Assembly: GCA_018830645.1 (NCBI GenBank)
Contig: JAHJSA010000037.1
Span: forward strand, 1-54,084
Reading direction: 5' to 3'
Source: Actinomycetota bacterium
Lineage (GTDB): Bacteria > Actinomycetota > Thermoleophilia > RBG-16-64-13
Length of the DNA stretch: 54,084 nt
Position 1 is the stretch's first letter; the number at the start of each line of letters is the position of its first letter. The translations under genes and the position numbers were made by a program. Positions 7,595-48,712 of this stretch are shown here, piece after piece. The notes under the pieces are model-generated. The model had not been told where the DNA came from. It did no database searches and worked only from the letters and a program-made list of their open reading frames with translations.

Positions 7595-8920
7595 ATGACC
7601 CACACCCTCATCTACCCCTCGCACAGCAGGCATGGTGCGAGCGGACACCTGGAGATCGACGGCTGCGACGTGGTCGATCTGGCCGCCGAGTTCGGTACTC
7701 CACTCTTCATCTACGAAGAGAAGACACTGGAAGACCAGTGTCGGCGATATCAGGAAGCGTTTCGTGCGCGCACAGACGACTTCGAGGTGATCTACGCCAG
7801 CAAGGCCTTCTGCTGTTTGGCCGTGTGCCAACTCGTGGAGCGCGAAGGCATGTCCATCGACGTGTCTTCCGGCGGCGAGTACCACACGGCGCTCGCCTCC
7901 GGTTTCCCCACCCACCGCATCTTCTTCCACGGGAACAACAAGACCGAGGCCGAACTCCGTTACGCTCTCGAGAACGGTGTGGGCTTCGTGGTGGTCGATA
8001 GTTTCGACGAGCTCCGGCTCCTGGAGCGGCTGGCGGCCGAGCGGGGCGAGGTCCAGCGGGTGTTGCTTCGCATCACCCCCGGCGTCGAGGCTCACACCCA
8101 CGAGTACATACAGACGGGTCAGCTCGATTCGAAGTTCGGCTTCGGGCTGGTCGAGGGCCAAGCCGAGGAGGCTATCCGTCTCGCCCTCGAAGCCGCCCAC
8201 CTGGATCCGATCGGGGTGCACGCCCACATCGGCAGCCAGATCTTCGAGCTCGAGGGGTTCCGCCGTGCCATCGCTGTCCTGGTGGACCTGATCAAGCGAA
8301 CCCATGACAGCCTCGGGTTCGACTGCCGCTACGTCAACGTGGGCGGCGGTCTGGGCATCCGCTACACGGAGTCCGACGTCCCCGTTACCATCGACGAATA
8401 CGTGGACTGCAAGGTGCGGGGCGTGCAAGAAGAGATGGCGCGGGTCGGGCTCCCGATGCCGCGGGTGCTGGTGGAGCCGGGGCGTTCCCTGGTGGGCAAG
8501 GCCGGTATCACCGCCTATCGCGTCGGCACGATGAAAGAGGTGCCGGGCATCCGCGCGTACCTGAGCGTGGACGGCGGCATGAGCGATAACATCAGGCCCA
8601 TGCTGTACGACGCGCGGTACGAGGCGATGATCGCCGATCGGGCCGACGATGAGCTGGACACTCTGGTGACCGTGGCCGGCAAGCACTGCGAGAGCAGCGA
8701 CATCCTGATCAAGGATGTGATGCTCTCCAGCCCACGCGTGGGCGACGTACTTGTGCTCCCCGCGACCGGAGCCTATTGCTATGCGATGGCCTCGAACTAC
8801 AACGGCAATCCACGGCCCGCGGTCGTCATGGCGCGCGATGGCAAGGCCCGTGTGATCGTGGAACGCGAGACGTACGACGATCTCGTGGCCAGGCAGCTTC
8901 CTCTCGAGGGTCGGGGGTAG
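7595..8920 (+). CDS. lysA: Diaminopimelate decarboxylase
   Basis: 441 aa with a PLP-fold type III layout, motifs YASKAF (PLP lysine) and GGGLGI, and a C-terminal beta-barrel domain. The lysA-hom neighbourhood is typical of actinobacteria. Confidence 0.95.
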   Translation: MTHTLIYPSHSRHGASGHLEIDGCDVVDLAAEFGTPLFIYEEKTLEDQCRRYQEAFRARTDDFEVIYASKAFCCLAVCQLVEREGMSIDVSSGGEYHTALASGFPTHRIFFHGNNKTEAELRYALENGVGFVVVDSFDELRLLERLAAERGEVQRVLLRITPGVEAHTHEYIQTGQLDSKFGFGLVEGQAEEAIRLALEAAHLDPIGVHAHIGSQIFELEGFRRAIAVLVDLIKRTHDSLGFDCRYVNVGGGLGIRYTESDVPVTIDEYVDCKVRGVQEEMARVGLPMPRVLVEPGRSLVGKAGITAYRVGTMKEVPGIRAYLSVDGGMSDNIRPMLYDARYEAMIADRADDELDTLVTVAGKHCESSDILIKDVMLSSPRVGDVLVLPATGAYCYAMASNYNGNPRPAVVMARDGKARVIVERETYDDLVARQLPLEGRG

Positions 8921-8922
8921 GG

Positions 8923-10206
8923 GTGAACGAAGACGGCACGCGCGTGGTCGGTGTGGTCCTACTGGGCTTCGGCACCATCGGATCCAGCGTGTATCGCATG
9001 ATCGAGAAGGAGTGGGAATCGATCTTGGAGTCGACGGGTGTCGAGCTCCGGGTGGTCCACATCCTCGACAACGACCCGGCGAAGGTGGGCGTTGGAGCGC
9101 CGGCGCACCTGTTCAGCAGCGACCCGCATGCGGTGCTCTCCGATCCTGCCGTGGATGTCGTGGTCGAGCTCATCGGCGGGGTCGAAACCGCTTTCGAGTT
9201 CATCGACCTGGCCTTCCGCAACGGGAAGGACGTGGTCACGGCCAACAAGCAGCTGGTTGCCAACAGGGGCGCCGCGCTGTTCGATCTGGCCCGCGACCTG
9301 GGCCGGCAACTGCGGTTCGAGGCGTCGGTCGCCGGGGCCGTCCCCGTGATCCGCGTGATGCGGGAAGGGATGTTCGCGGCCGGGCTCGACACGGTGTACG
9401 GCATCGTCAACGGCACCACGAACTACATTCTCACCGCGATGTACGAGGGCGCCGGCGGCTATTCCGACACGTTGGCGCGGGCCCAGGAGCTCGGGTACGC
9501 GGAGGCCGACCCCACAGCCGACGTGGGCGGCGGCGACGCCGCGGCCAAGATGGCTATCCTGGCTTCCATCGCGTATCGGTCTCGCGTCACGATGGCGGAC
9601 GTCACCTACGAGGGCATCGAGGCGGTGTCGCTGGAGGACGTGCAGTACGCGAAGGACTTCGGGTTCGTGGTGAAGCTCGTGGGTGCGGCGCGCCTGATCG
9701 ATGGAAGGGTGAGCGTGCGCGTGCATCCGGCGCTCGTGCCAAGGGAGCACCTCCTTGCTTCGATCAACGGTTCGATCAACGCGGTCTACCTGCAAGGAGA
9801 CGCGATCGGCGAGATCATGCTGACGGGGCCCGGGGCGGGGGGAGACCCCACGGCGACCGCGGTGGTGGCCGATATCGTGACCATCGCCGGTACGGAACGG
9901 GCCGGCTTCCTACAGAACTGCAGCTGCTACCGGAACCTCGAGTTCCTGCCCGAGAACCTGGCGGAGTCGGCCTTCTTCATCCGTATGCAGGTGGAGGATC
10001 GCGCGGGGGTGCTCGCCCAGATCTCCTCGATCTTCGGAGAGCACGGGGTGTCCATCGAGAGCATGATCCAGAAGGGGCACAGCGACGAGGCCGAACTGGT
10101 GTTGATCACCTACCCGTCTGTGGAGGAGTCCTTCTTCCGCGCGATAGACGGGATCGCAGGCCTCAGTTGTGTGAGGAGCCGGCCGATGACGATCCGGGTG
10201 CTGTAG
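8923..10206 (+). CDS. hom: Homoserine dehydrogenase (with C-terminal ACT domain)
   Basis: The Rossmann N-terminus VGVVLLGFGTIGSSV, the catalytic domain and a C-terminal ACT-like region. The start was chosen at GTG 8923 just after the lysA stop; the ORF-track start at 8776 overlaps lysA. Confidence 0.9.
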   Translation: MNEDGTRVVGVVLLGFGTIGSSVYRMIEKEWESILESTGVELRVVHILDNDPAKVGVGAPAHLFSSDPHAVLSDPAVDVVVELIGGVETAFEFIDLAFRNGKDVVTANKQLVANRGAALFDLARDLGRQLRFEASVAGAVPVIRVMREGMFAAGLDTVYGIVNGTTNYILTAMYEGAGGYSDTLARAQELGYAEADPTADVGGGDAAAKMAILASIAYRSRVTMADVTYEGIEAVSLEDVQYAKDFGFVVKLVGAARLIDGRVSVRVHPALVPREHLLASINGSINAVYLQGDAIGEIMLTGPGAGGDPTATAVVADIVTIAGTERAGFLQNCSCYRNLEFLPENLAESAFFIRMQVEDRAGVLAQISSIFGEHGVSIESMIQKGHSDEAELVLITYPSVEESFFRAIDGIAGLSCVRSRPMTIRVL

Positions 10207-10255
10207 CCTCGGGCGAGCGCGCCGCGACCGGGGTGCGGCGGCAGTGAGGTGACTG

Positions 10256-11200
10256 ATGTCCAGAGGGTGGAAGATCTTCTTGTGGATCGCCGGCGTCTTC
10301 GTGCTGGGTTACGTGGTCTTGCTGGTCGCGTTGCTCGCATCTGCCGGCGACGGCGTCGCTTGGGGCTCCGGGTCGGGCACCGTGGGGGTGATCCGGCTGG
10401 ATGGGGTCATCTCTGCGGACAGCGAGCCGACGGCGTTCTCGGCAGGGGGCATCGATCCGGTCTCCACCGTCGAGCTGCTCCGCTCGGCCGACGAAGACCC
10501 CGACATCGACGCGATCGTGCTCCGGATCAACAGCCCCGGAGGCAGCCCGGCCGCTTCGTGGGAGATCTACCAAGCGGTGAGCGAGATGCAGAAGCCCGTG
10601 GTGGTGTCGGTGGCAGACGTCGCCGCCTCAGGTGCGTACTACTTCGCTAGCCCGGCCGATGTGATCATGGCGGCTCCCACGTCGGAGGTGGGCAGCATCG
10701 GCGTCATCCTCATGGCGCAGGACTTGGAAGGTCTGCTGGAGAAGGTGGGCATACGGTACACGGTGCTCACGAGGGGAGAGCACAAGGATATCGGCAGCCC
10801 CGCGCGGGCGATGACCGACGAAGAGAAGCGCATCCTGCAGGAGCAGGTGGACATGATCTACGAGCGATTCATCGCCGATGTCGCCGACGGACGCCCCGAA
10901 CTCGACGCGGACCAGGTGCGGGAGTTGGCCACCGGCTTGACGTATCCGGGAGAGGAGGCGTTGCGCCTCGGCTTGATAGACGAACTCGGCTCCTACTCGG
11001 ATGCGCTCGATGTGGCCGCGGACCTGGCTGGGCTCGATTTGGAAGACTATGGGGTGACGTACCTGCAGCCCGAGTTCGGCGCAGACCTCCTGTCGCTGTT
11101 CCTGGGCGTGAGCAGCGGCGCCCTTCGGCAGATCGGTATCGGTCTGGCGCAGGGATTGACTGCGCCCGCGCTCGACGGCGCCCGACTCCGCCTTGAATGA
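10256..11200 (+). CDS. sppA: Signal peptide peptidase SppA (36K type, S49 family)
   Basis: An N-terminal TM anchor followed by a ClpP/crotonase-fold S49 domain, with SPGGS (Ser nucleophile context) and DVAASGAYY motifs. Confidence 0.85.
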   Translation: MSRGWKIFLWIAGVFVLGYVVLLVALLASAGDGVAWGSGSGTVGVIRLDGVISADSEPTAFSAGGIDPVSTVELLRSADEDPDIDAIVLRINSPGGSPAASWEIYQAVSEMQKPVVVSVADVAASGAYYFASPADVIMAAPTSEVGSIGVILMAQDLEGLLEKVGIRYTVLTRGEHKDIGSPARAMTDEEKRILQEQVDMIYERFIADVADGRPELDADQVRELATGLTYPGEEALRLGLIDELGSYSDALDVAADLAGLDLEDYGVTYLQPEFGADLLSLFLGVSSGALRQIGIGLAQGLTAPALDGARLRLE

Positions 11201-11228
11201 CCCGCCTGAGGAGGTGAGGGACCCCGTT

Positions 11229-12035
11229 ATGGATTCGAAGACCCGCTCTCTGCGTATCGTGCACTTCTCCGACATCCACTGCGGTTCGCAGTACTTCGTG
11301 CCGAACCTCCTGGAGCGCACCCTCGTGGAGATCAACGACCTCGCGCCGGACATGGTGGTGATCACGGGCGACCTCACGAACATGGGCTACCGGCAGGAGT
11401 TCCGTGAGGCTCAGGAGTACCTCGAGAAGCTGCAGTGCCAAGAGGTGCTGGTTGTGCCGGGCAACCACGACAGTCGCAACGTCGGCTACATGCACTTCGA
11501 ACGTCTCTTCGCTCGGAAGCGGGACTCCCTCATCTCGAAGGGGGGAGTGACCGTACTCGGTATCGACTCCACGGAGCCCGACCTGGACTACGGCCGGGTG
11601 GGCCGCCACCGCTACGCGTGGATCGAGGAGCAGTACGCGGAGCATCCCAACGACTTCAAGATCTTCGCCCTGCATCACCATCTGCTTCCTATCCCAGGCA
11701 CGGGCCGCGAGCGAAACGTGGTGCACGACGCGGGAGACGTGCTCGAGGTGCTCATCTCCCAGGGAGTCAAACTGGTGCTCTCGGGACACAAGCACGTGCC
11801 CTACGCGTGGCGCCTCGAGGACATGTTCGTGGTGAACACGGGTACCGTATCGACCCTGCGACTGCGGGGGAACACGAAGCCCTGCTACAACGTGGTGCAG
11901 ATGGAGGGCGGCCACGTCACCGTGACGCGGCGCTACCCGTTCCACGGTGGAGAGGTGATCGTGGAGTTCGACGAAGAAGACACCACCTACGTGCGCCACG
12001 ATTTCCAGCTCGATCGGGTGGTCTCGGAGTCGTGA
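11229..12035 (+). CDS. Calcineurin-like metallophosphoesterase
   Basis: Motifs HFSDIHCG, GDLTN, GNHD and GHKH are the classic MPE metal-ligand blocks. It is preceded by a GAGGAGGTGAGGGA Shine-Dalgarno. An alternative TTG start lies at 11193. Confidence 0.8.
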   Translation: MDSKTRSLRIVHFSDIHCGSQYFVPNLLERTLVEINDLAPDMVVITGDLTNMGYRQEFREAQEYLEKLQCQEVLVVPGNHDSRNVGYMHFERLFARKRDSLISKGGVTVLGIDSTEPDLDYGRVGRHRYAWIEEQYAEHPNDFKIFALHHHLLPIPGTGRERNVVHDAGDVLEVLISQGVKLVLSGHKHVPYAWRLEDMFVVNTGTVSTLRLRGNTKPCYNVVQMEGGHVTVTRRYPFHGGEVIVEFDEEDTTYVRHDFQLDRVVSES

Positions 12036-12037
12036 AC

Positions 12038-13465
12038 ATGATTGGGTCGGCGGGCGGCGGCCCACCGCCCGCGGCCGTCGCTCTCATCGACGGCGAGCAC
12101 TATCCCCCTGTGGTGGTCGACGCTCTGCAGGCTCTCGCGCACCGCTTCTCGTTCCTCGCGGCGCTGTTCCTGGGAGGCTTCGAAAAGATCAAGGGGGACG
12201 ATCTTGCCGCCACCGCGGCCCGGATCTACGGCCTTCCCGTGCACTTCCCCGGCCCTTCCGGCGTGGAAGGCGCATTGCGTCAGGTGGTCGATACGTATCG
12301 ACCTTCGGTAATCGTTGACCTCAGCGACGAGCCTGTGGTAGGGTACCGAGAGAGGTTCCGGCTGATCAGCCATGCGCTGGCCCGGGGCGTCGCGTACGAA
12401 GGATCCGACTTCCGTTTCTCACCCCCAAGGCTCGACCGCCTTGCCACGAATCCCTCGCTCTCCATCATCGGGACCGCGAAGCGCGTTGGAAAGACGGCAC
12501 TGAGTGGCTACGTCGCCCGCATCATGGAAGACCACCTGCGGGAGTCCACCGAGCGGTGGGTGAACGAAGGGTCGGGCATCGTGATCGTGGCGATGGGTCG
12601 CGGCGGGCCCGCGGAACCCGAGATCATCGACGGTGGGGCACGGGTGCTCACAGCGAACGATCTCTTGGAGTGGAGTCGTGCCGGGCGCCACGCCGCCTCC
12701 GACCACTTCGAAGACGCGGCTCTGAGCAGGATGACCACGGTGGGCTGTAGGCGATGCGGGGGCGGGATGGCAGGCGAACCCTTCGTCTCCAATGTGGCCG
12801 AGGGGGCGCGTGTGGCCAATGGACTCGGCCCTGCGCTCACCATATTCGAGGGGAGCGGTGCGGCTCTGCCCCCAGTGGCGACCGACGCGCGCATGTTGGT
12901 AGCCGGGGCGCACCAGCCGCTGGAGTACGTGACGGGGTACCTAGGCACGTATCGCGTGCTGGTGAGTGATGCGGTGGTGCTCACCATGGCGGAGGAGCCG
13001 CTGGCGGACGCGGCGCGTGTCGCCCGGCTAGTCGAGGAGGTGCAGGCCATCAAGAAGGACGTACCGGTGATCCCGGTCGTGTTCAGGCCTCGACCGATGG
13101 AGCCCATAGACGGTAGGACGGTCGCTCTCTTCACGACGGCTCCGGCGTCGCAGGAACCTGTGCTGCGGCGGTACCTGGAAGAGCGGTATGGCTGCAAGGT
13201 CTTGGCCTTCTCCGACCGCCTCTCCGATCGAGCGGGGCTGCGGGAAGACTTGGCCCGGCCTGAGGTCGACAAGGCGGAGTTGCTCCTCACAGAGATCAAG
13301 GCGGCTGCCATAGATGTGGTCGCCGAAGAAGCGGACCGGCGAGGGGTGCCCACGATCTTCCTGGATAACATCCCGATCGAGACCGGCGGTGCGCGCGAAG
13401 GTGAACTCGCCGAGACGTGCCGCCACCTCGCGCACACAGCAGCCCGAAGATACGGGAGCGCATGA
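12038..13465 (+). CDS. cpgS: Cyclic 2,3-diphosphoglycerate synthetase-like protein (cDPGS family)
   Basis: About 475 aa with a P-loop GTAKRVGKTA and architecture and length matching archaeal cDPG synthetase. It is immediately followed, with overlap, by a 2-phosphoglycerate kinase homologue, the canonical partner. Confidence 0.75.
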   Translation: MIGSAGGGPPPAAVALIDGEHYPPVVVDALQALAHRFSFLAALFLGGFEKIKGDDLAATAARIYGLPVHFPGPSGVEGALRQVVDTYRPSVIVDLSDEPVVGYRERFRLISHALARGVAYEGSDFRFSPPRLDRLATNPSLSIIGTAKRVGKTALSGYVARIMEDHLRESTERWVNEGSGIVIVAMGRGGPAEPEIIDGGARVLTANDLLEWSRAGRHAASDHFEDAALSRMTTVGCRRCGGGMAGEPFVSNVAEGARVANGLGPALTIFEGSGAALPPVATDARMLVAGAHQPLEYVTGYLGTYRVLVSDAVVLTMAEEPLADAARVARLVEEVQAIKKDVPVIPVVFRPRPMEPIDGRTVALFTTAPASQEPVLRRYLEERYGCKVLAFSDRLSDRAGLREDLARPEVDKAELLLTEIKAAAIDVVAEEADRRGVPTIFLDNIPIETGGAREGELAETCRHLAHTAARRYGSA

Positions 13466-14421
13466 CGCCTCTGGGAACAAGTGAGAACGGTCAGGATGGG
13501 ATCTCCCTGCGCATCGTAAGCGACGAGCACGGAGTGCCCTTCTCGAAAGGTCTCCTCGCACAGTCTCTCACTGCCACCGGTCTCTCGCCGGACAGGGCCT
13601 ATCGCGTCGCGATCGAGGTCGAGAAGCAGGTGCGGCAGACCGACAGCCTCGACATCTCCATCGACGAACTTCACGCCCTCGTGGGACGCGTCCTCGCCAC
13701 CATGGAGGGCCCTGAGGTCGTGGCTCGCTACCGGAAGTGGAACCAGATCGGCATGGCGGAGAAGCCCGTGATCGTACTGATCGGTGGCGCGACCGGAGTG
13801 GGCAAGAGCACGATTGCCAGCCAACTCGCGAACCGGCTGGGCATCGTCCGCTTGATCTCGACCGACTCGATCCGCCAAGTGATGCGCACCTTCTTCTCGC
13901 CGGCGCTGATGCCGGCGATCCACTACTCGTCGTTCAATGCCGGAGCGGCGATCCGGGTGCCGGTCGGCAGGAACCTCGACCCTCATCTGGTAGCGTTCGT
14001 GGAGCAGGTGGAGATGGTCTCGGTGGGAGTGGAGGCGATCATCGAGCGGGCCATCACCGAGGGCACGTCGCTGGTGGTGGAGGGCGTGCATCTTGTGCCG
14101 GGCTTCCTTGATCCCGCGAACTTCATTCAGGCGCTGCACCTCCATCTGACGGTGAGCGTGAGCGATACAGATCTACACATGAGCCACTTCCTGGTGCGCG
14201 AGCGCGAGACCGACGGACGCCGCCCATTCACCAGGTACGTGGAGCACTTCGACGAGATCAGGCGCATCCAGGACTTCATCCTCGAGCGCGCCGCAGCCGA
14301 AGGGACCATCGTGGTGGATAACGTGAACATCGACGACGCGGTGGCTACTGCCGTGGACGCTCTCTACACCATGATCGAAGAGGGCGAGCAGGTCTCGGTC
14401 GCGACGGGTGGTGAGGCATGA
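13462..14421 (+). CDS. 2-phosphoglycerate kinase-like protein (ATP-cone N-terminus plus P-loop kinase)
   Basis: N-terminal ATP-cone-like segment (ISLRIVSDEHGVPFSKGLLAQSL...) then the P-loop GGATGVGKST. It is 319 aa, as for methanogen 2PGK. ATGA overlap with cpgS. Confidence 0.75.
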   Translation: MTPLGTSENGQDGISLRIVSDEHGVPFSKGLLAQSLTATGLSPDRAYRVAIEVEKQVRQTDSLDISIDELHALVGRVLATMEGPEVVARYRKWNQIGMAEKPVIVLIGGATGVGKSTIASQLANRLGIVRLISTDSIRQVMRTFFSPALMPAIHYSSFNAGAAIRVPVGRNLDPHLVAFVEQVEMVSVGVEAIIERAITEGTSLVVEGVHLVPGFLDPANFIQALHLHLTVSVSDTDLHMSHFLVRERETDGRRPFTRYVEHFDEIRRIQDFILERAAAEGTIVVDNVNIDDAVATAVDALYTMIEEGEQVSVATGGEA

Positions 14422-15380
14422 CCTCCGAAGACGGCCGGCGCTGCATGTGCACCGACTTCGTTCGCGCCACCGAGGCGGCGGCGCTGGCGGCTGGCCGTTG
14501 GATGGGACACGGAGATAGCGACGCCGCCGACGCCGACGCCCAAGCGGCCATGGCCGCGGCGCTCGACGTGCTGCCGGTTGAAGGTGTGGTGGTCATCGGT
14601 GAGGGCGATCGCGAACAGGCCCCGCGCCTCTTCGTGGGCGACCGTGTGGGAGCGGGCGGCACGCGGTGCGATATCGCGGTGGATGCCCTGGAGGGTGCCG
14701 GGATCGTGGCGCGCGGCCAGGCGGGGGCCATGAGCGTGGTGGCCGCCGGGCCGCCGGACGGCCTGATGTCGATGCCGAACATGTATCTTCAGAAGCTGGT
14801 AGTGGGGGCGAAGGCGGCCGGCCGGGTGGACATCGACGGCCGCGTGATAGACACTCTGCGGGCCATAGCCGAAGCGTACGAGCGGCCGGTGGCCGAACTC
14901 ACCGTGATCATCTTGGATCGCCCTCGCCACGAAGACCTGATCGCCGAGGTGCGGCGGGCCGGCGCCCGTATCAAGCTCATCCCAGACGGTGACGTCACGG
15001 CCGGCATCGCCGTTGCGGTGCAGGATGCGACCGACCAGCTGTACGTGGGGATCGGCGGGGCGGCCGAAGGTGTCCTCACGGCCGTCGCGATGAGATGCCT
15101 TGGGGGCGAGATCCAGGCGAAGCTCTGGCCGCTGTCCCGGCGAGAGGTGGAATTGGCGCGGCAGCATGGTATCGACGACATCGAGACCACACTGCGCACT
15201 GAGGACATGGTCACGGGAGACGTACTCTTCGCCGCGACGGGAGTGACGGAGGGCGAGTTCCTCAAAGGTGTGGAATACCTGGGCTTCGGCGTTCGCCTGC
15301 ATTCTATGGTCATGTGCAGCCGCTGCCGCGATGTCCGCATGATCCAGACCACTCACCTGCACACGGACGTCACGCGCTAG
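14418..15380 (+). CDS. glpX: Fructose-1,6-bisphosphatase class II
   Basis: Characteristic GlpX blocks (VVIGEGDR, DIAVDALEG, ILDRPRHEDLI, GIGGAAEGVL). ATGA overlap with the upstream gene. Confidence 0.9.
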   Translation: MTSEDGRRCMCTDFVRATEAAALAAGRWMGHGDSDAADADAQAAMAAALDVLPVEGVVVIGEGDREQAPRLFVGDRVGAGGTRCDIAVDALEGAGIVARGQAGAMSVVAAGPPDGLMSMPNMYLQKLVVGAKAAGRVDIDGRVIDTLRAIAEAYERPVAELTVIILDRPRHEDLIAEVRRAGARIKLIPDGDVTAGIAVAVQDATDQLYVGIGGAAEGVLTAVAMRCLGGEIQAKLWPLSRREVELARQHGIDDIETTLRTEDMVTGDVLFAATGVTEGEFLKGVEYLGFGVRLHSMVMCSRCRDVRMIQTTHLHTDVTR

Positions 15381-15495: not shown

Positions 15496-16746
15496 ATGGA
15501 GCTGACAGAACTAGAACCGAGGCTCCTATCCGACCTGCACGTGGTTGCGGGGGAGCTTGGCATCAAGAACTTCAACAAGTACTCGAAGCAAGACCTCATC
15601 TCGAAGATCTTGAGCGAGCAGTCGGTGGATCGCGGGGTGCAGTACCGCACGGGCCTCTTGGACGTGTTGCCGGACGGTTTCGGCTTCCTGCGCACCATGG
15701 GCTACACGCAGTCCGACTCCGACATCTACGTCTCGTTGTCGCAGATCCGGAGATTCAAGCTCCGTCGCGGCGACGAGATCACGGGGCAGGTGCGCACCCC
15801 GAAGGACAGCGAGAAGTACCACGCTCTGCTCAAGATCCAGACGGTGAACGGCCTCGATCCGGAGCAGGCGCGACACAGGCCGAACTTCGACGCGCTCACT
15901 CCTCTCTTCGCAGAGGATCGGTTGCGTCTCGAGACAACACCGAACCGCATCGCGCCTCGGGTCATGGACCTCATCTGTCCTGTGGGCAAAGGCCAGCGGG
16001 GCCTGATCGTGTCCCCGCCGAAGGCGGGCAAGACCACCATCCTCAAGGAGATCGCCAACTCGATAGCCGAGAACAACCCGGAAGTGCACCTGCTCGTACT
16101 GCTCGTCGACGAGCGGCCCGAAGAGGTCACCGACATGGAGCGCTCGGTGAACGGCGAGGTGGTCAGCTCGACGTTCGATCAGCCTGCGGAGAACCACCTG
16201 CAGGTGACCGAACTCGTGCTCGAGCGCGTCAAGAGGTTGGTGGAAGTCGGGCGAGACGTGGTCGTGCTCCTCGATTCCATCACGAGGCTTGCGCGCGCCT
16301 ACAACCTCGCCGCACCCGCCTCCGGCCGTATCCTTTCGGGCGGGGTGGACTCGGCGGCTCTCTATCCACCGAAGAAGTTCTTCGGGGCCGCGCGGAACAT
16401 CGAAGAGGGGGGATCGCTCACGATCCTGGCGACCGCGCTCGTAGAGACCGGATCGCGCATGGACGAGGTGATCTTCGAGGAGTTCAAAGGCACCGGCAAC
16501 TGGGAGGTGCACCTCAACCGTCAGCTGGCCAACAAGCGCATCTTCCCGGCCATCGACATAGATAAGTCGGGCACCCGCCGTGAAGAGCTCCTCATGGATC
16601 CGGCGGAAGCGAAGATGGTCTGGAAACTCCGCTCCGTGCTTCACGCACTCGACCCGAACGCGGCCATAGAGCTGCTCATCGGCAAGATCAAGGACACGAA
16701 GTCGAACCAGGACTTCCTGGAGGCCATGCGCAAGAACTCCCGTTGA
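15496..16746 (+). CDS. rho: Transcription termination factor Rho
   Basis: 416 aa with the N-terminal Rho_N / cold-shock-like domain, Walker [18 protein letters not shown], and Q- and R-loops. Confidence 0.95.
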
Positions 16747-18850: not shown

Positions 18851-18940
18851 AGAAGAGCCGGCGCCCCCTTGGTGAGAGGAGCGGCGCCCTTTGGCGAGAA
18901 GAGCGGCGCCCCTTCGGGGAGAGGGCCGGCGCCTCCTACT
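18851..18940. repeat. Four imperfect tandem repeats of about 23 bp (core AGCGGCGCCCCTTnGGnGAGAGG) in the convergent panC / hps-rraA intergenic region
   Basis: Read directly. The units contain GGCGCC palindromic cores and could form a series of stem-loops between the two convergent genes. Confidence 0.5.
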
Positions 18941-20243
18941 TCTTCTCCCACTTGAGTAGGTAGGCCACCTGGCTGAGCGTGCTGCCCTGGCGGATCTCCT
19001 CGCGCAATCGGTTCTCCTTCTCGAGCACGTCCATCGCCCGGTTGGTGTACTCCACCGCCTTCTCGCGCGGGATCACGCAGACTCCGTCGTCGTCGCCGAT
19101 GATCCAGTCGCCCGGGGCGATGGTGACGCCGGCGATGCGGATGGGCACGCCGATCTCTCCGAAACCCTTGGGTTCGCCGGCGGTGGGAGTGACATGGGTT
19201 GTGAAGAGGGGGAAGCCGAGTTCACGGATGTCCCCGGTGTCGCGTGCCGCGCCGTGGATCACGACGCCTGCCAGGCGGCGCTGGATGGCGGAGTTCGTCG
19301 CCAGTTCGCCCCAGACCGCCGGAAGTACGCCGCCTGCGTCGATCACCAGCACGTCACCCTCGTTCGCGACGTCGATCGCTTCTACCGGCTTCGCCCAATC
19401 GCCGGGGTAGGTGCGCACGGTTACCGCGGGGCCCACCATCCGCGCCCCCGGAGTGCGGGCCACCAGGCCGGGCAGATCGCCGGAACGGTGCAGCGCGTCG
19501 CTCACGTTGGCCGCGGATACGCGGGAGAGGGTGTCACGCAGGTCAGGGCCCGAGGCGCGCACGAAGTACTCCGACTCCACCGAGACCAGGTACTGCAACG
19601 CATGCTTGATCTGGCGGGTCGCCTCCGTCGCGTCTGTGGCCTTGGTGATCGCTCCGCCCACCACGACGATCGAGGCGCCGGCCCTGAGGGCCTCGGCCGC
19701 GGTGACGGAATTGATGCCGCCGGCCACCGACACCGGTATCGATACAGCCTCCGCCACCTTGCGGAGCGTGTCGAAGGGGGTCTTCCCTTCCATCTGCTCG
19801 TCGATGGCCACGTGTATGCCGATGTACGCGGCGCCCATGGCCTCAGCCTCGCGCGCCCGCTGCACGGGGTCGGCCACCTGCACCATGTCGACGATGATCT
19901 CGGCTCCATAGTTGCGCCCGGCCTCGACGCACTCGCGGATCGTGGCATCGGAGGCGGCTCCCAAGACGCCCACCACCTGCGCGCCCGCCTTTGCGGCGAA
20001 CTCGACTTCGGCCCGCCCGGCGTCCATGGTCTTCATGTCCGCGACGATGGTCTTCTCGGGCCAACGGGCTCGTAGTGCGCGCACCGCCTCCAAACCTTCG
20101 CTCTTGATGAGGGGAGTGCCCGCCTCGAGCCAGTCGGCTCCTCCGAGAACCGCCTCCTCTGCCACCTTCAGCGCACGGGGCAGGTCGACGAAGTCGAGGG
20201 CGATCTGGAGCTTCGGGCCGGGTGTTCTGCGATCGGCACTCAT
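18936..20243 (-). CDS. Bifunctional fusion: 3-hexulose-6-phosphate synthase-like (OMPDC-fold) N-domain plus RraA-like / class II aldolase-family C-domain
   Basis: N-terminal KLQIALDFVDL...IVADMKTMDAG...VGIHVA is HPS/KGPDC-like. The C-terminal about 200 aa (SRVSAANVSDALHRSGDLPG...GDVLVID...VIHGAARD) is RraA/MenG-like. It is one continuous frame. Confidence 0.8.
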   Translation of the reverse strand: MSADRRTPGPKLQIALDFVDLPRALKVAEEAVLGGADWLEAGTPLIKSEGLEAVRALRARWPEKTIVADMKTMDAGRAEVEFAAKAGAQVVGVLGAASDATIRECVEAGRNYGAEIIVDMVQVADPVQRAREAEAMGAAYIGIHVAIDEQMEGKTPFDTLRKVAEAVSIPVSVAGGINSVTAAEALRAGASIVVVGGAITKATDATEATRQIKHALQYLVSVESEYFVRASGPDLRDTLSRVSAANVSDALHRSGDLPGLVARTPGARMVGPAVTVRTYPGDWAKPVEAIDVANEGDVLVIDAGGVLPAVWGELATNSAIQRRLAGVVIHGAARDTGDIRELGFPLFTTHVTPTAGEPKGFGEIGVPIRIAGVTIAPGDWIIGDDDGVCVIPREKAVEYTNRAMDVLEKENRLREEIRQGSTLSQVAYLLKWEKK

Positions 20244-21781
20244 TCTGTGACTCCCATGAACTGGGCAACGAGTCGCCTGTCGCGGGGCCGGCTGTCGAAG
20301 CAGACGAACACGACCTCCTGCCAGGTACCGAGAGTCAGGCGACCCTCGGTGAAGGGGATGACGAGCGAGGGACCGAGGAGACCGGCCCTCACGTGAGAGT
20401 GGCCGTTCCCGTCGGCGAGAAGTAGGTTGTGGCGGTAGGGGTCGTTAGCCGGCACGATGCGGGCGAACAGCTGCTGGAAGTCGTGCACCACGCCGGGCTC
20501 GAACTCCAGGGTGGTGACCGCGCCGGTAGCTCCCGGCGCGAAGACCGTCACCGTGCCGGCGGTGAGGCCGCTCTCCCGCAGGAGGTGGTTGAGCTGTTGG
20601 GTGATGTCGATGACGTCACCCTCACCTTGGGTCGAGAAGGCGATGGTGCGGGTGAGCACGGTCAGGTCGCCCGTCACCGCTTGGCGGGCTCGCTCTGTCG
20701 TCACGGTCATGATGTTCTCCAGTCTGTCGAGGAGCGGCTCGGGCAGGTCGCCGCGACGGCGAACGAGGTCGAGGGTCGCGACGCCGAGTGTCGTGTAGAG
20801 GGGCAGCAGGTCGGGGGTACGTTCTTCGAGGGCGAGCAGGTGACGTTCTACGGTCTCGACATCGCCGCGCGCAAGGGGGCCGGTGAGAGCCGAGAGCGTG
20901 CCGCCGGCTGCGATGTTGTCCACCGCCCCGCGGACCAGTGGGAGGAAGGCATCGAGCACCTGCTCCTGAGGCAGTCCGCTCTCGAGGAACAGGCGTTCGG
21001 CGACGGCCTCGAGGGCGACCAGGTAGTTGCTCGCCACCACTGCCGCCGCATGGTACAGAGCCCGGTCGCGCTCGGCCAGCCGGAAAGGCCGCGCGCCGAG
21101 TGCGCGGGCCAGACGGAACGCGAAGGCAGACGCCTGCTCGGCGGAAGCGGGATCCTGTGAGCCGGGCGTCACCGCGATGGCGGCACCACGCAGCCGCTCG
21201 GGTCCGAGGGCGGGGTCACTCAGAGTCTGCAGAGGGTGGAACGAGAACGTCAGAGCGCCCGCGGCGGCGCACGGAGCGAGTACGTCGGTGGAGGTGGCCC
21301 CGCTCACGTGGGCGACCGCCCACTGGGGTCCATCGTCAGCCGACTCTCGCACGGCGGCGGCCAGGGCTGCGGCAACCGAAGGCAGCTCCGCGTCGGGCAC
21401 CGTGAGGAGGAACAGCGGGGAAGGAGGGGGCTCCGCGGGGGATGCTGCCGCCGTGGGCGGCTGGGGCGGCGTCGCGGGAACGACGCTGTCTCTCGCCGGC
21501 ACCTTGGCGCGCTCGTCACGGCCGCCGGAGCGCATCTCCGCGACCAGTTCCGACAGCGTATGAGAGGAAGGAACGCCAAGGAGTCCCGCGGCACGGTTGC
21601 GTCCGGCTTCGGATCGTCCGGTGTGTCCCACGAGTCGGGCGCCGCCCGCGGCCAGAGCAAGCGCGATCGAGACGCCGGCCCGTCCGGCTCCGATCACCGC
21701 GAAGCGAACGTCGTCGAGGCGGGCGGGGTCGCGCCGCGCCGGCGCGCTCAGGTCGTCGAGCGAGAGTGCGCGCTGGTGCAC
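20240..21781 (-). CDS. Fusion protein: Rossmann-like DUF2520 domain (putative NAD(P)-dependent reductase often linked to panC) plus C-terminal YjbQ/UPF0047 domain. Start uncertain: GTG at 21781.
   Basis: The Rossmann motif RFAVIGAGRAGVSIALAL and the DUF2520-like body run in the same frame, with no stop, into a YjbQ-like module (MTVTTERA...TVFAPGATGAVTTLEFEPGVVHDF...GTWQEVVFVCFDS). The ORF-track N-terminus (to 22489) overlaps pspC and looks like non-coding frame. Confidence 0.7.
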   Translation of the reverse strand: MHQRALSLDDLSAPARRDPARLDDVRFAVIGAGRAGVSIALALAAGGARLVGHTGRSEAGRNRAAGLLGVPSSHTLSELVAEMRSGGRDERAKVPARDSVVPATPPQPPTAAASPAEPPPSPLFLLTVPDAELPSVAAALAAAVRESADDGPQWAVAHVSGATSTDVLAPCAAAGALTFSFHPLQTLSDPALGPERLRGAAIAVTPGSQDPASAEQASAFAFRLARALGARPFRLAERDRALYHAAAVVASNYLVALEAVAERLFLESGLPQEQVLDAFLPLVRGAVDNIAAGGTLSALTGPLARGDVETVERHLLALEERTPDLLPLYTTLGVATLDLVRRRGDLPEPLLDRLENIMTVTTERARQAVTGDLTVLTRTIAFSTQGEGDVIDITQQLNHLLRESGLTAGTVTVFAPGATGAVTTLEFEPGVVHDFQQLFARIVPANDPYRHNLLLADGNGHSHVRAGLLGPSLVIPFTEGRLTLGTWQEVVFVCFDSRPRDRRLVAQFMGVTE

Positions 21782-22178
21782 AGCTGCGCCAGGGGCGGCT
21801 TGGATGTCCCGCGATGGGGGCGAAGATGAGTCGATAATGTGACCTTCCGTTCCAGTTCTGCGTTCAGATACCAGACATCGGTCGAGCTGTGCGGTTGACG
21901 TACCCGTCCTGGGTGCGGAGCCGTAGCCATGCGGTACACCTCTGGAAGGTAGGCGTCCTGGTTGTGACCCATCACGAGGATAGCAGGCAGGAGAGAGCTG
22001 TTCAAAGGGCGGGGCGTTCCAGCGGCGCCCGGGTCGGCGGCGCACGGCACCTTGGTCGGCAGCACGCGGCGCTCGGCTCGGGAACATCCACCCCTGTGGA
22101 TACGTATCTTGAAGATGAGGGGACGATACTCGAAGTCCGTGATGGGGCTCGGGCCGTGCCGACGTTGATGAGGAGGAT

Positions 22179-22391
22179 ATGATGGCCAGGAAGCTCACGA
22201 GGTCGCGTGACGAGAAGATGATCTGCGGGGTTGCCGCAGGCCTGGCTGAGTACTTCGACATCGATGCGACGATCATGCGGCTGATCTGGGTGGTCGCCGT
22301 GCTCATGCCCGGGCCGAACCTGATCATCATCGCGGCGTATCTGGTACTCTGCCTACTCATGCCGCTCAAGACCGCGAACGGCGCGTCCTGA
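22179..22391 (+). CDS. PspC-domain protein (phage-shock protein C family), 70 aa
   Basis: RSRDEKMICGVAAGLAEYFDIDATIMRLIWVV followed by a TM helix, the canonical PspC domain. A strong GAGGAGG Shine-Dalgarno precedes it. Confidence 0.7.
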   Translation: MMARKLTRSRDEKMICGVAAGLAEYFDIDATIMRLIWVVAVLMPGPNLIIIAAYLVLCLLMPLKTANGAS

Positions 22392-22449
22392 TCCGACCTG
22401 ACCGACGTTCGAGTGTGATCGGGGCGGCCGTTGGGTCGGAGGTCTCCCC

Positions 22450-23190
22450 ATGCCGAGTCGTGAAGAGCGGGCTTCGAGCCTGAACGCACAGCAGGTGGCG
22501 CTACGCGATTGCACCGCCTGCTCCCTTTCCCTGAAGCGCACCCAGGTGGTCTTCGGCGTCGGCGACGCCGCGGCTGAGATCATGTTCGTGGGAGAGGGCC
22601 CGGGGTTCCACGAAGACAAGCAGGGCGAGCCATTCGTGGGTCAGGCCGGGAAGCTGCTCTCGGAACTCCTCGCGACCATCGGACTCCGCCGCGAAGACGT
22701 GTACATAGCCAATGTGGTGAAGTGCCGACCGCCTGACAACCGCGATCCCCTTGCGAGTGAGATCGAGGCCTGCTCTCCCAACCTCCTCGAGCAGGTGCGC
22801 ACGATCCGGCCGCGGGTGATCTGTACGCTGGGCCGATTCGCCACGAGGTTGATAGGAGAGACCGATGCGCCCATCTCCTCGGTGCGTGGGCGCGCCAAGT
22901 CCATGGAGGTGGCGGGGGTCCCCGTGATGGTGTTCCCGGTGTTCCATCCGGCGGCGGCGCTCTACACCCCCTCGAACCGCGCCCTTCTCGAAGAGGATCT
23001 TCGCAAGTTGAAGCTCCTTCTTGACCGCGATAGAAAGGCGTTGACTTCTCAGGAGGACGAATACGTCGCCGAGGTGGCGGCGGTCCCGGACGAGCACGTC
23101 GCAAAGGCGGAGATCACGGTGGCATCGGGTACCGTGGGCGACGACGGGCGATCCGGCGGAGAGCGCGCCGAGCAGCTGCCTCTGTGGTGA
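22450..23190 (+). CDS. Uracil-DNA glycosylase, family 4 (Fe-S type)
   Basis: Motifs CTACSL, GEGPG and HP... with cysteine ligands typical of family-4 UDG. Confidence 0.85.
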   Translation: MPSREERASSLNAQQVALRDCTACSLSLKRTQVVFGVGDAAAEIMFVGEGPGFHEDKQGEPFVGQAGKLLSELLATIGLRREDVYIANVVKCRPPDNRDPLASEIEACSPNLLEQVRTIRPRVICTLGRFATRLIGETDAPISSVRGRAKSMEVAGVPVMVFPVFHPAAALYTPSNRALLEEDLRKLKLLLDRDRKALTSQEDEYVAEVAAVPDEHVAKAEITVASGTVGDDGRSGGERAEQLPLW

Positions 23191-27435: not shown

Positions 27436-29085
<1,650 letters not shown>

Positions 29086-30169: not shown

Positions 30170-31570
30170 ATGCGGCATCTTTCCCCGGGCATCTCCCCGG
30201 AACTGACGGAGCATGTCCTCAGAGTTGCCCTGCGCAACGGGGGTGACTACGCCGAGGTCTTCGCGGAAGACCGGTCCTCCCTGTCCGTGCGCATGGACGA
30301 CGGTAGGCTTGAGGAGGTCTCTTCGGGTATCGATCAGGGCGCCTCGATCCGTCTGGTCAAGGGCCCAACCACGTCGTTCGGTTTCACCGACTCCCTCGAC
30401 GAATCGGCGCTGGTTGCCCTCGCCGAACGGCTGAGCGCGAGCGTGCGCGGCACCGCCGCGCTCCCCTCGTCCGTGCGTGTGATCACCCTGGACCCTCGTC
30501 CGCTACCCCGACTGATACCGGCCGCTGTCGAGACCGGAGCCAAGACTGACCTGGTGCGGGCAGCCGAGAGCGTGGCCCGCGAGAGGTCCGAAGAAATACG
30601 TCAGGTTGCGGTCGGCTACTCCGAGGGGCGCCAGCGCACCTGGGTGGGTTCGTCTCGCGGTCCCTTCGCCACCGACGACCGCACCCGGGTGGTGCTCAGT
30701 GTGAACGTGGTGGCTCAGCGGGATGGCTCCATCCAGACAGGCCACGAGACACTGGCCGGCACCGTCGGCTTCGAGATCTTCGATGGCGCGGCCCACCTGC
30801 GGACGGCCCTTGAGGCGGCCGACAAGGCGTTGGTCATGCTCGACGCCCGGCCCGCCCCGGGTGGGCGCATGCCCGTCATCCTGGCCAACGGGTTCGGCGG
30901 GGTGTTGTTCCACGAGGCCTGCGGTCACGGGCTCGAGGCCGACTTCATCGTGAAGAAGACCAGCATCTGGGAGGGTCGCCGCGGCACGAGGGTAGCCGCC
31001 CCCTTCGTCACGGCGTACGACGACGGAGTGACGCCAACCATGTGGGGCAGCAACGCGATCGACGACGAGGGCACGCCCACGGAGGCGACGGTGCTCATCG
31101 AAGAGGGCATCCTCACCGGGTACATCACCGATGTCTTGCGCGGAGAGAAGTTGGGCCTGGCCTCCACGGGCAACGGTCGCCGCCAGAGCTACCGCCATCT
31201 GCCTTACCCGCGCATGACGAACACCTACTTCGCCGCCGGCGACGTGTCGGCCGCCGACCTCATCGCCGACACTCCTCGGGCGTTCTACGCGAAGAGCCTC
31301 TCGGGCGGTCAAGTGGATCCGGCCACCGGGGACTTCGTCTTCGGGGTCTCCGAGGGGTACCTGATCGAAGGGGGCCGTGTGGGTACGCCCCTCAAGGGAG
31401 CGACGCTGATCGGCAACGGAGCCGAGGTGCTCGAGGCCATCGACGCCATTGCCGACGATCTCGAGGTGAGAGCCGGCATGTGCGGCAAGGAGGGGCAGGC
31501 GGTGCCGGTGGGCACCGGCCAGCCGACGCTCCGGCTGCGTGAGCTCACAGTGGGGGGGACGGCCGTATGA
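30170..31570 (+). CDS. tldD: Metalloprotease TldD
   Basis: HEACGH zinc motif (FHEACGHGLEADF) and TldD/PmbA fold sequence throughout. Confidence 0.9.
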   Translation: MRHLSPGISPELTEHVLRVALRNGGDYAEVFAEDRSSLSVRMDDGRLEEVSSGIDQGASIRLVKGPTTSFGFTDSLDESALVALAERLSASVRGTAALPSSVRVITLDPRPLPRLIPAAVETGAKTDLVRAAESVARERSEEIRQVAVGYSEGRQRTWVGSSRGPFATDDRTRVVLSVNVVAQRDGSIQTGHETLAGTVGFEIFDGAAHLRTALEAADKALVMLDARPAPGGRMPVILANGFGGVLFHEACGHGLEADFIVKKTSIWEGRRGTRVAAPFVTAYDDGVTPTMWGSNAIDDEGTPTEATVLIEEGILTGYITDVLRGEKLGLASTGNGRRQSYRHLPYPRMTNTYFAAGDVSAADLIADTPRAFYAKSLSGGQVDPATGDFVFGVSEGYLIEGGRVGTPLKGATLIGNGAEVLEAIDAIADDLEVRAGMCGKEGQAVPVGTGQPTLRLRELTVGGTAV

Positions 31571-32937
31571 CCGAGGTCCCAGGCGCCGAGCTTCTCGACG
31601 TAGGGCGCTCCGTACTCGAGCGGGCGGGTGGGCTTACCGGCGATATCGAGGTCTACGTGCAACACTCACAGACCCTTGCGGTGAAGGTGTATCAGGGTGA
31701 GGTCGAATCCCTGGTGGCCGGCGAACCGCGGGGCATCGGAGTGCGCTACGTCGCCGACGGCAGAGCCGGGTACGCCTACACGGGTGATTTCGCCCCGGCT
31801 GCGCTCGACGAGGTGGTGGCCATGGCCGCGACCAACGCCGCCGCCGCCGATCTCGACGAGTACGTCTCGCTACCGCATGCCGCAGATGTGTACCCGGAGG
31901 TGCAAGGTCTGTGGCGGCCTTCACTCCTTTCGACGGCCGTGGAGCGGAAGATCGCCCTGGCGGTGGAGGCGGAGAAGACCGCTCTGGGCTCGCCCGAGAT
32001 CGAGACCGTAGAAGAGAGTGCCTACGTCGATTCCGCGACACGGATGGCGATCGTCTCGAGCAAGGGGGTCGAGGTGTACGGCGAGCAGACGTTCTGCTAC
32101 GTCTACCTTTCGGCCCACGCTCGGCGCGGCGACGACGTGCAGACCGGGCTCGGCTTCGTGACGGGCCGTGAGCCCGAAGAGCTCGACCCGGCGTCCGCGG
32201 GCCGGGATGCCGCACTCCAGGCCGCGAGGCTTCTCGGGGCGCGTCCGTGCCCCACGGGCAAATACACCGTGGTGCTCGACCGGGAGGTCGCCGCGGCCGT
32301 TTTCGGCGTGGCCGTCCGCGCCCTCTCAGCGGAGGCGGTGCAGAAGGGCCGGTCGTTGTTCGCCGGCAAGGTCGGCGAGCTGGTTGCGGCGCCCTCGCTC
32401 TCTCTGGTGGACCACGGACTGCATCCCGACGGGATGGCCAGCGCCTCCTTTGACGACGAAGGGGTGCCGCGCAAGGTGACTCCTCTGATCGAGGACGGCG
32501 TGCTAAAGGGGTTCTTGCACGATACGTACACCGCCGCGCGCGAGGGCGGCGGGGCCGGCTCCACCGGTAATGCCGAGCGAGGCAGCTATCGCGGCTCGCC
32601 CGGGGTGTCGGCGTCGAACCTGATGCTCGACTCGGGCGAGGGAACGCTCGAAGAGCTGTTCGCGCGCGTGGGCACGGGCCTGTACGTGGTGAGCATCACC
32701 GGTCTCGCCTCGGGCGCCAACCCGGTGAGCGGGGAGTTCTCGGTGGGCGCCCGCGGGCTGCTGATCGAAGGTGGCGCTCTGACCTCGGCCGTGCGCGAGG
32801 TGACCATAGCGTCGGATCTCGTGAGCCTGCTGAGCAACGTGGGCGACAGAGCCGGCGATGCTCGGTGGATCCCGTTCTCCGGCAGCGTGTACACGCCGTC
32901 GTTCGCCGTCACCGACGTCACCGTCGCCGGCACGTGA
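31567..32937 (+). CDS. pmbA: Metalloprotease PmbA/TldE
   Basis: Paralogous TldD/PmbA-family sequence lacking the HExxxH motif. ATGA overlap with tldD. Confidence 0.9.
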   Translation: MTEVPGAELLDVGRSVLERAGGLTGDIEVYVQHSQTLAVKVYQGEVESLVAGEPRGIGVRYVADGRAGYAYTGDFAPAALDEVVAMAATNAAAADLDEYVSLPHAADVYPEVQGLWRPSLLSTAVERKIALAVEAEKTALGSPEIETVEESAYVDSATRMAIVSSKGVEVYGEQTFCYVYLSAHARRGDDVQTGLGFVTGREPEELDPASAGRDAALQAARLLGARPCPTGKYTVVLDREVAAAVFGVAVRALSAEAVQKGRSLFAGKVGELVAAPSLSLVDHGLHPDGMASASFDDEGVPRKVTPLIEDGVLKGFLHDTYTAAREGGGAGSTGNAERGSYRGSPGVSASNLMLDSGEGTLEELFARVGTGLYVVSITGLASGANPVSGEFSVGARGLLIEGGALTSAVREVTIASDLVSLLSNVGDRAGDARWIPFSGSVYTPSFAVTDVTVAGT

Positions 32938-33600: not shown

Positions 33601-33873
33601 GTGACCAAATCTGATTTTGTCGACAAACTCGCGGCTAAGACGGGTCTGAGCAAGAAGGACTCCGCCGCAGCTGTCGATGCTTTCGTGGACGTTGTGACGG
33701 AAGCTCTCGCAGATGGTGAGGCTGTGCAGTTCACCGGCTTCGGCAAGTTCTACGTACAGAAGCGTGAGGCCCGCGAGGGTATCAACCCGCAGACCAAGGC
33801 CAAGATCCAGATCGCTGCGACGAAGGTTCCGAAGTTCAGCGCGGGTACGAGCCTCAAAGCCTCGGTGCGCTAA
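33601..33873 (+). CDS. hup: Nucleoid-associated protein HU
   Basis: 90 aa, TKSDFVDKLAAKTGLSKKDSAAAVDAF...GFGKFYVQKREAREGINPQT, the HU/IHF signature. GTG start 5 nt after a GGAGG Shine-Dalgarno. Confidence 0.9.
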   Translation: MTKSDFVDKLAAKTGLSKKDSAAAVDAFVDVVTEALADGEAVQFTGFGKFYVQKREAREGINPQTKAKIQIAATKVPKFSAGTSLKASVR

Positions 33874-33897
33874 CGCTCTCCTCTCTTGTTCTGTTCA

Positions 33898-33924: not shown

Positions 33925-33937
33925 ATTGGCGGGGGCC

Positions 33938-48641: not shown

Positions 48642-48712
48642 GTCGTCGGACCTCCTTTCTAAGCTAGCCGTGCGTTCTCTCATGTGCCGATCGTTCAGTT
48701 CGGATGATCGGT

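Follow-up and report, generated by a model that had tools for sequence, protein, structure and literature searches.

The stretch of DNA analysed here, called the window below, comprises 54,084 nt of contig JAHJSA010000037.1 (assembly GCA_018830645.1), assigned to an Actinomycetota bacterium of the Thermoleophilia. Between positions 10256 and 15380 it carries five genes on the + strand with nearly no intergenic space: sppA (10256–11200), encoding a short-form signal peptide peptidase; a gene for a calcineurin-type metallophosphoesterase (MPE; 11229–12035, 268 aa); two genes whose products are homologous to cyclic 2,3-diphosphoglycerate (cDPG) synthetase (cDPGS; 12038–13465, 475 aa) and to 2-phosphoglycerate kinase (2PGK; 13462–14421, 319 aa); and glpX (14418–15380), encoding a class II fructose-1,6-bisphosphatase. 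The initial annotation of the window had listed these five genes correctly and had read them as a methanogen-type cDPG pathway in an actinobacterial chromosome. We consider it probable that the trio MPE-cDPGS-2PGK, of which MPE is the first gene, makes cDPG from 2-phosphoglycerate (2-PG), with a possible catabolic role for MPE, that it is an old unit inherited vertically, and that its product is more likely an osmolyte or a reserve than a heat protectant.

The genes are closely packed in the order lysA-hom-sppA-MPE-cDPGS-2PGK-glpX. The ATG of the cDPGS gene lies 2 nt past the MPE stop codon, and two 4-nt ATGA overlaps, reported in the initial annotation and read again directly from the sequence, join cDPGS to 2PGK (13462–13465) and 2PGK to glpX (14418–14421). 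The open reading frame (ORF) of MPE opens at a TTG at position 11193; the start codon is likely to be the ATG at 11229, which is preceded by GGAGGTGAGG and gives the 268-aa length found in the closest homologue, P0121 (97% identity, 100% coverage). G+C content is flat over the region (0.65), and G+C at third codon positions (GC3) is 0.79–0.83 in the genes of the trio vs 0.84–0.88 in the neighbouring genes. Two long antisense ORFs, one at 12508–14145 (− strand, 545 aa) over cDPGS and 2PGK and the other at 14364–15362 (− strand, 332 aa) over glpX, would be chosen by a naive length-based gene caller. Direct counts at the three codon positions gave them a GC3 of 0.74–0.75, below the 0.79–0.83 of the sense genes, and they were therefore rejected as high-GC shadow ORFs. 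An Rfam scan returned two tRNAs only and no riboswitch.

The 475-aa protein was unmatched in the copies of Pfam and NCBIfam used, whose models do not include PF27272 (CpgS_N), and it was a search of PDB sequences that gave its identity. Residues 13–448 aligned with residues 7–433 of the chain of cDPGS from Methanothermus fervidus (8ORK, E = 8.3e-112), the two proteins being 41% identical over 453 aligned columns. PF27272 is assigned by precomputed annotation to an identical protein (P0001), and an identical protein in NCBI bears the name 'MAG: 2,3-diphosphoglycerate synthetase [Actinobacteria bacterium]'. The window protein shares with the M. fervidus enzyme (8ORK/8ORU, PMC10690619) the two-domain layout, the N-terminal CpgS_N domain and a Walker A motif of the form GT(A/G)KRxGKT, and differs from it in an 11-residue insertion after the P-loop helix, in its bacterial host and in the linkage of its gene with 2PGK and MPE.

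[quoted passage not shown] The corresponding residues in the window protein are E49, K50, K148, R149, K152, T153, D222, E319, T367, E419 and K421, respectively. When 79 bacterial sequences were aligned with 10 that came from archaea or PDB, E45, K46, K145, R146, K149, T150, T353, E404 and K406 were kept in all 79 bacterial homologues, and D208 and E305, both present in the window protein, in 78 and 77 of them. P335, also named in PMC10690619, has no clean mapping in the alignment numbering, and the conserved R-P-x-P at 336–339 is retained. The full-length match to 8ORK and the conservation of all ligands published for 2,3-DPG, Mg and ATP bear out the identification made in the initial annotation, and the 475-aa protein is predicted to convert 2,3-DPG and ATP to cDPG, ADP and Pi.

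The 319-aa product of the next gene contains an ATP-cone (PF03477, residues 20–94) followed from about residue 100 by a P-loop kinase domain with the motif GGATGVGKST. Its best matches (E of about 1e-95) are the two NCBIfam models of 2PGK, NF008994 (E = 1.5e-95; 320.6 bits, cut-off of 603 not reached) and NF003259 (E = 6.6e-93; 311.4 bits vs a cut-off of 343; profile positions 8–297 of 306), and the next families are PRK12338 (152 bits) and mevalonate-3-phosphate 5-kinase (87 bits). For neither protein did the top matches fall in unrelated P-loop families. Archaeal 2PGK, as represented by NF003259 and NF008994, has the same ATP-cone and P-loop kinase domains, with near full-length coverage of the profile by the window protein, which differs in scoring under the equivalog cut-off. 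This likeness is judged through the NCBIfam profiles; there is no solved 2PGK structure for a residue-level comparison. The M. fervidus kinase is the subject of Lehmacher and Hensel 1994, as cited in PMC4890121, and a 2005 paper pointed out homologues of 2PGK among bacteria, in Thermus and Deinococcus (PMC1274311). We predict that the 319-aa protein converts 2-PG and ATP to 2,3-DPG and ADP.

A scan of GTDB with one genome per species found at least 524 stretches that encode a relative, and the neighbourhood counts given below refer to the best 80 of these loci. Almost all of the 80 are from Actinomycetota metagenome-assembled genomes (MAGs) with the labels Gaiellales, Thermoleophilia, Coriobacteriia-like, Aquicultor and Anoxymicrobiaceae, and a few are labelled Anaerolineae, Krumholzibacteriia, Calditrichota or Methanolliviera; the names of sequence clusters add Bipolaricaulota and Cloacimonadota. 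The three-gene unit is widespread in Actinomycetota, also occurs in other bacterial phyla and appears to be carried by hundreds of bacterial species. At 90% identity, more than 7,990 clusters matched the window cDPGS with E ≤ 1e-10, which is a lower bound, and clustering at 50% gave 221 clusters at E ≤ 1e-30 and 692 at E ≤ 1e-10.

2PGK lies directly 3' of cDPGS in 75 of the 80 loci and MPE directly 5' of it in 71, and the trio is nearly always flanked by hom upstream, sometimes accompanied by thrC and thrB, and by rho downstream. Two homologues of MPE picked independently of cDPGS both belong to MPE-cDPGS-2PGK trios. One is in a locus (L086/L087) whose gene order from lysA through panC is that of the window, and the other in L085, which has an intact trio with entirely different flanks; in L085 and L086 the called MPE and cDPGS genes overlap. 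The outer genes behave differently. glpX follows 2PGK in 18/80 loci, all of the Gaiellales/Thermoleophilia type, and its position is taken by a transaldolase/FSA gene (TAL_FSA, 218–220 aa) in L027 (Aquicultor) and L057 (Coriobacteriia-like). sppA is found 5' of MPE or cDPGS in 24/80 loci and in L086 and L087, and is absent in the nearest Gaiellales-type loci (L001–L013). The gene makeup given in the initial annotation, with sppA and MPE upstream and glpX downstream, is correct for the window, but glpX and sppA are lineage-specific neighbours and not core members; the conserved third partner is MPE.

In the window sppA and glpX, as well as rho downstream, each score above their own NCBIfam equivalog cut-offs (sppA, TIGR00706, 208.8 bits vs 155; glpX, TIGR00330, 299.2 bits vs 259.3, and PF03320, E = 1e-112; rho, 15496–16746, + strand, TIGR00767, 653 bits). 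sppA is probably not functionally part of the unit. As for glpX, the ATGA overlap argues for its co-translation here. On the other hand, tal and glpX also adjoin rho in Bacillus subtilis, so that the signal of a gluconeogenic neighbour may in part reflect an ancient inherited gene order. Upstream, L027 has thrC and thrB and L057 a thrB-like GHMP kinase gene between hom and the cDPG unit; thrC and thrB are absent from this interval in the window (10206–10256) and in the Gaiellales-type loci.

The archaeal loci are organised in other ways. In Methanothermobacter and M. fervidus, cDPGS adjoins neither 2PGK, which lies elsewhere, nor MPE. A small gene of the PF05618 family (putative ATP-dependent Zn protease, RimB-like) stands right after cDPGS in both (L082:7405–7935 and L084:5914–6492), with a 23-nt overlap of the two genes in M. 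fervidus, and may be a conserved archaeal partner of cDPGS. Among non-methanogenic or other archaea, Pyrococcus yayanosii (PYCH_14390-400, PMC4890121) and Methanolliviera (L045) resemble the window in having cDPGS and 2PGK side by side; the genomic context of these pairs differs, and no MPE partner was found in L045. A second phosphoglycerate-related context is present in two non-actinobacterial MAGs, at L026:6069–11014 (labelled Anaerolineae) and L064:3011–8812 (labelled 'Thermotoga sp.'), where the cDPGS homologue has no 2PGK or MPE neighbour. Here an iPGM-like metalloenzyme, with its Metalloenzyme and iPGM_N domains in an unusual order, is encoded 3' of cDPGS and an ABC transporter (permease and ATPase) 5' of it, joined on that side in L026 by a gene for a xylose-isomerase-like TIM barrel protein.

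To our knowledge, no gene has been assigned to a cDPG hydrolase. The MPE of the trio (PF00149, E = 2.9e-21) has complete metal-binding motifs, namely SDIH (14–17), GDLT (47–50), GNHD (78–81), HHH (149–151) and GHKH (186–189), all at least 97% invariant, and 66 of its 268 residues reach this level of invariance among the homologues. The invariant residues include the basic R83, R98, R126, R160, R162, K188, R211 and R213, with which a polyanionic substrate would fit, and there are distinct invariant loops (PDLDxGxxGR, PGTGRERN and RxRG). The best Foldseek matches of an AlphaFold2 (AF2) model (predicted TM score 0.83) are phosphoesterases. By sequence and by predicted fold the nearest structures are Rv0805 and GpdQ (E of about 1e-10, TM of about 0.6), together with Lmo2642 and purple acid phosphatases, at only 15–22% identity; the model and the Foldseek search gave no clue to the substrate. 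Rv0805, a class III cyclic-nucleotide phosphodiesterase, and GpdQ, a glycerophosphodiesterase, have the fold and dinuclear-metal motifs in common with MPE, but MPE is only 15–22% identical to them, has distinct invariant loops and is linked to cDPGS. MPE is conserved more than cDPGS (mean p-distance 0.37 vs 0.45), with 50–77% identity to the window protein over the 80 loci vs 45–63% for cDPGS. We propose that MPE may be a hydrolase of cDPG or 2,3-DPG, a turnover role suggested by its conserved linkage.

The following scheme is proposed from these data. By orthology to the archaeal enzyme, 2PGK would phosphorylate 2-PG with ATP to give 2,3-DPG. The cDPGS dimer would then phosphorylate the 2-phosphate with ATP, and attack by the 3-phosphate would release Pi and close the cyclic pyrophosphate, as in the mechanism described for the archaeal enzyme (PMC10690619). 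The gene order, with its ATGA overlaps, suggests that the translation of cDPGS, 2PGK and glpX is coupled. MPE, as judged from its conserved linkage, would either hydrolyse the ring of cDPG, giving 2,3-DPG, or remove phosphate from DPG, and its action would return carbon and phosphate to the pool of 2-PG and 3-phosphoglycerate that feeds gluconeogenesis through GlpX. The product would be an anionic osmolyte or a reserve of phosphate, carbon or energy. The ppk-ppx and cphA-cphB operons bring together genes that make and mobilise a reserve, and the arrangement proposed here, a synthetase beside a mobilising hydrolase, would be analogous, although the protein families are unrelated. cDPG has been discussed as a store of carbon and phosphate tied to gluconeogenesis, and the M. 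fervidus cDPGS is able to run backwards to yield ATP (PMC1224877).

Several points weigh against this scheme. The case for bacterial cDPG is built as a whole on homology and gene context. A scan of the locus for promoters and terminators gave nothing beyond shuffled expectation, and the operon structure is therefore drawn solely from gene spacing. The 2PGK homologue stays under the curated equivalog cut-off (311 vs 343 bits), and the 2PGK family includes members with different or uncertain functions, such as rice Lpa1 and relatives of mevalonate-3-phosphate 5-kinase. As to the score, seven bacterial 2PGKs encoded next to cDPGS reach 258–331 bits on NF003259, all below the cut-off, and the archaeal Methanolliviera 2PGK adjoining cDPGS (L045), whose score equals that of the window protein, misses it as well (317 bits); the cut-off thus appears to be tuned to a narrower clade, rather than to separate off a different family.

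The cDPGS fold is also able to change its substrate, since ArcE (TK2200), a distant paralogue of cDPGS that is widespread in bacteria, catalyses the unrelated conversion of arginine to citrulline coupled to ATP/ADP (PMC11032458). If the window protein had drifted to another substrate in a similar way, and the kinase acted on a compound other than 2-PG, no cDPG would be made. Such a drift would be compatible with the score of the 2PGK homologue, with the lack of a cDPGS model, and thus of a curated cut-off, in the Pfam and NCBIfam copies used, and with the Anaerolineae-type loci, which pair the cDPGS homologue with an iPGM-like enzyme and an ABC transporter instead of 2PGK. However, ArcE has only 'low' similarity to cDPGS, is treated as a separate group and is linked to arcB and arcC (PMC11032458), whereas the window protein matches the crystallised enzyme over its full length, retains all DPG, Mg and ATP ligands and is linked to 2PGK. 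A scan of the neighbouring genes and of other large ORFs of the window detected no domain of ArcB (ornithine transcarbamylase) or ArcC (carbamate kinase). In all but 5 of the 80 loci cDPGS adjoins a gene of the 2PGK family, and a neighbour related to phosphoglycerate is kept even in the odd loci. Its identity, ligand residues and neighbours place the window protein on the cDPGS side and not with ArcE, TK2200 being set apart through its published description, and we regard the loss of cDPG synthesis through substrate drift as very unlikely.

The remaining points concern MPE. The cDPG hydrolase activity of M. thermautotrophicus was reported to be membrane-bound (PMC1224877), whereas MPE has no obvious hydrophobic stretch as judged by eye, and its candidate role is one of guilt by association. 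The nearest structures, at 15–22% identity, are cyclic-nucleotide and glycerophospho-diesterases, and the JGI name for its homologues is CpdA/Icc. MPE is absent from the three archaeal loci examined (Methanothermobacter, M. fervidus and Methanolliviera) and is missing at this position in four actinobacterial loci that have cDPGS and 2PGK, where sppA abuts cDPGS. MPE could thus stand outside cDPG metabolism, as a cyclic-nucleotide or other phosphodiesterase held in place by the hom-rho gene order, with cDPGS and 2PGK functional on their own; the whole region is strongly syntenic, lysA, hom, rho, S58 and panC also being conserved. In contrast, the trio is kept in L085 between entirely different flanks, only 2 nt part the MPE stop codon from the start of cDPGS in the window, the gene calls of the two overlap in both L085 and L086, and MPE is conserved beyond cDPGS, with invariant Arg/Lys loops specific to its subfamily and little similarity to known phosphodiesterases. 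An MPE unconnected with cDPG is a possibility to be taken seriously, although we think it rather doubtful, and a catabolic role in the trio is the reading adopted here.

The origin of the unit was also considered. The upstream flank (lysA and hom, 7595–10206, + strand) is 65–73% identical to the flank of L001–L013, and rho begins 115 nt after glpX; taken together, lysA, hom and rho share 65–88% identity with their counterparts in MAGs of the Gaiellales/Thermoleophilia type, by which the host is actinobacterial. The identifiers available for the sample are ERZ927988, ERR2191546 and PRJEB10519, and a literature search on the project gave only unrelated matches. In a neighbour-joining (NJ) tree of cDPGS, which is a rough, unrooted distance tree without an outgroup and with sparse sampling of archaea, the Methanobacteriales (100/100 bootstraps) stand apart from a group made up of Methanolliviera, PDB entry 9SXB and the bacterial clade. 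The bacterial clade was recovered in 81/100 bootstraps, and its internal structure follows the actinobacterial classes. Among 48 genomes, pairwise distances of cDPGS are correlated with those of 2PGK (0.94) and MPE (0.90), and the distances of all three with those of Rho (0.83–0.90). Since the distances track one another and Rho, and codon GC3 is native, the data point to an old acquisition of the unit followed by vertical co-inheritance in deep-branching Actinomycetota.

The characterised enzymes are archaeal, and the initial annotation had raised the question of an archaeal origin by horizontal transfer. A recent transfer of methanogen DNA, or a chimera with archaeal DNA formed in assembly or binning, would be expected to disagree with what was found: G+C and GC3 are native, dozens of independent assemblies, multi-megabase contigs among them, show the actinobacterial flanks in collinear order, and the bacterial sequences form a clade of their own apart from the Methanobacteriales, with distances that track Rho. 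Either event is extremely unlikely, and the idea of an isolated, recent passage from methanogen to actinobacterium was given up. PDB entry 9SXB, a second 'cyclic 2,3-diphosphoglycerate synthetase' (436 aa, lysine-rich, organism unstated), is nearer to the bacterial clade than the Methanobacteriales enzymes are in the NJ tree, and our literature search found no paper describing it.

With regard to the role of the product, archaeal cDPG stabilises proteins at high temperature (PMC10690619, PMC12136491), and the pathway could operate as predicted while cDPG served as a bulk thermoprotective solute, as in methanogens, with the window organism being a thermophile. Some carriers are from deep mines or subsurface fluids, judging by record titles. 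A growth-temperature proxy based on IVYWREL content gave about 62 °C for the window proteins, but the corresponding six proteins gave 53–85 °C at all of the related loci, those of MAGs labelled MFD among them, and the proxy was discarded as uninformative for this reason. The MFD-labelled MAGs are taken by us to be from Danish soil or sediment samples. The record titles of many bacterial carriers suggest palsa, fen, permafrost, groundwater, deep mines and Danish samples as habitats, and homologues of cDPGS are present in named species of Methanobacterium and Methanobrevibacter, which are mostly mesophilic. Because many carrier names suggest soil, peat, permafrost and groundwater, an osmolyte or reserve is the likelier product; thermoprotection may apply to some carriers but is unlikely to be the role in general, and we judge a thermophilic window organism with a bulk heat-protective solute to be correspondingly improbable. 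The stronger proposal, that MPE is a cDPG hydrolase and that cDPG is at the same time a widespread reserve or osmolyte in mesophilic and cold-habitat Actinomycetota and several other phyla, is put forward tentatively, as an idea with less chance of being right than wrong.

In recent specialist papers cDPG is said to occur exclusively in hyperthermophilic methanogens and is presented as a thermoprotectant of potential commercial value, in agreement with the initial annotation, which had called the solute methanogen-specific. Our literature search, by names of the compound, of the enzymes and of actinobacterial taxa, turned up no paper that deals with cDPGS or cDPG in bacteria, and a paper on cultured OPB41 strains makes no mention of cDPG. 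Automatic annotation by NCBI and JGI and the Pfam family PF27272 (CpgS_N) already name bacterial proteins cDPGS. What is new here is thus not the names, which are in the databases, but a putative bacterial member of the pathway set in a conserved three-gene unit, together with a candidate breakdown enzyme.

If the unit works as predicted, several consequences would follow. 1) Should MPE also be the hydrolase and cDPG a widespread bacterial reserve or osmolyte, it would not be safe to read cDPGS as a genomic marker of thermophily, which is the use made of it in an ancestral reconstruction of ammonia-oxidising archaea (PMC7554672). 2) Hundreds of uncultured bacterial species would make cDPG, many of them apparently from ordinary soils, peat and groundwater. 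3) The view of cDPG function would shift towards storage or osmotic balance. 4) Mesophilic, high-GC variants of the enzymes would be at hand for cDPG production, and there would be a concrete candidate gene for cDPG breakdown. 5) The locus would be a case in which automatic annotation had carried an unremarked biological claim for years.

Other parts of the window contain features unrelated to the cDPG unit. At its 3' end, a tRNA-Ala(GGC) gene (43357–43432) is followed on the − strand by genes for a large serine recombinase, a Replic_Relax protein and a 737-aa protein with weak similarity to coupling proteins of type IV secretion systems, and then by a SNF2 helicase gene on the + strand, with a drop in G+C from about 0.65 to 0.59. 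The region 43357–54084 resembles an integrated element, mobilisable or conjugative, that continues past the end of the window; no att-like direct repeat for it was found inside the window. An unusual fusion is encoded at 18936–20243 (− strand, 435 aa), with an OMPdecase/HUMPS domain (residues 10–212) and an RraA-like aldolase domain (245–390), and a separate second gene of the OMPdecase family lies at 33713–34834. The adjacent ORF at 20240–22489 (− strand, 749 aa) combines a Rossmann-like/DUF2520 region with a C-terminal UPF0047 domain and has about 350 unmatched N-terminal residues; it may represent a fusion, a pair of separate genes or a single ORF whose start is over-extended. A tandem TldD/PmbA metallopeptidase pair is located at 30170–32937. 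The window also contains groEL (27451–29085), tsaD, guaA and genes for a PBP5-type carboxypeptidase and a flotillin-like protein, which confirm a chromosomal housekeeping context.

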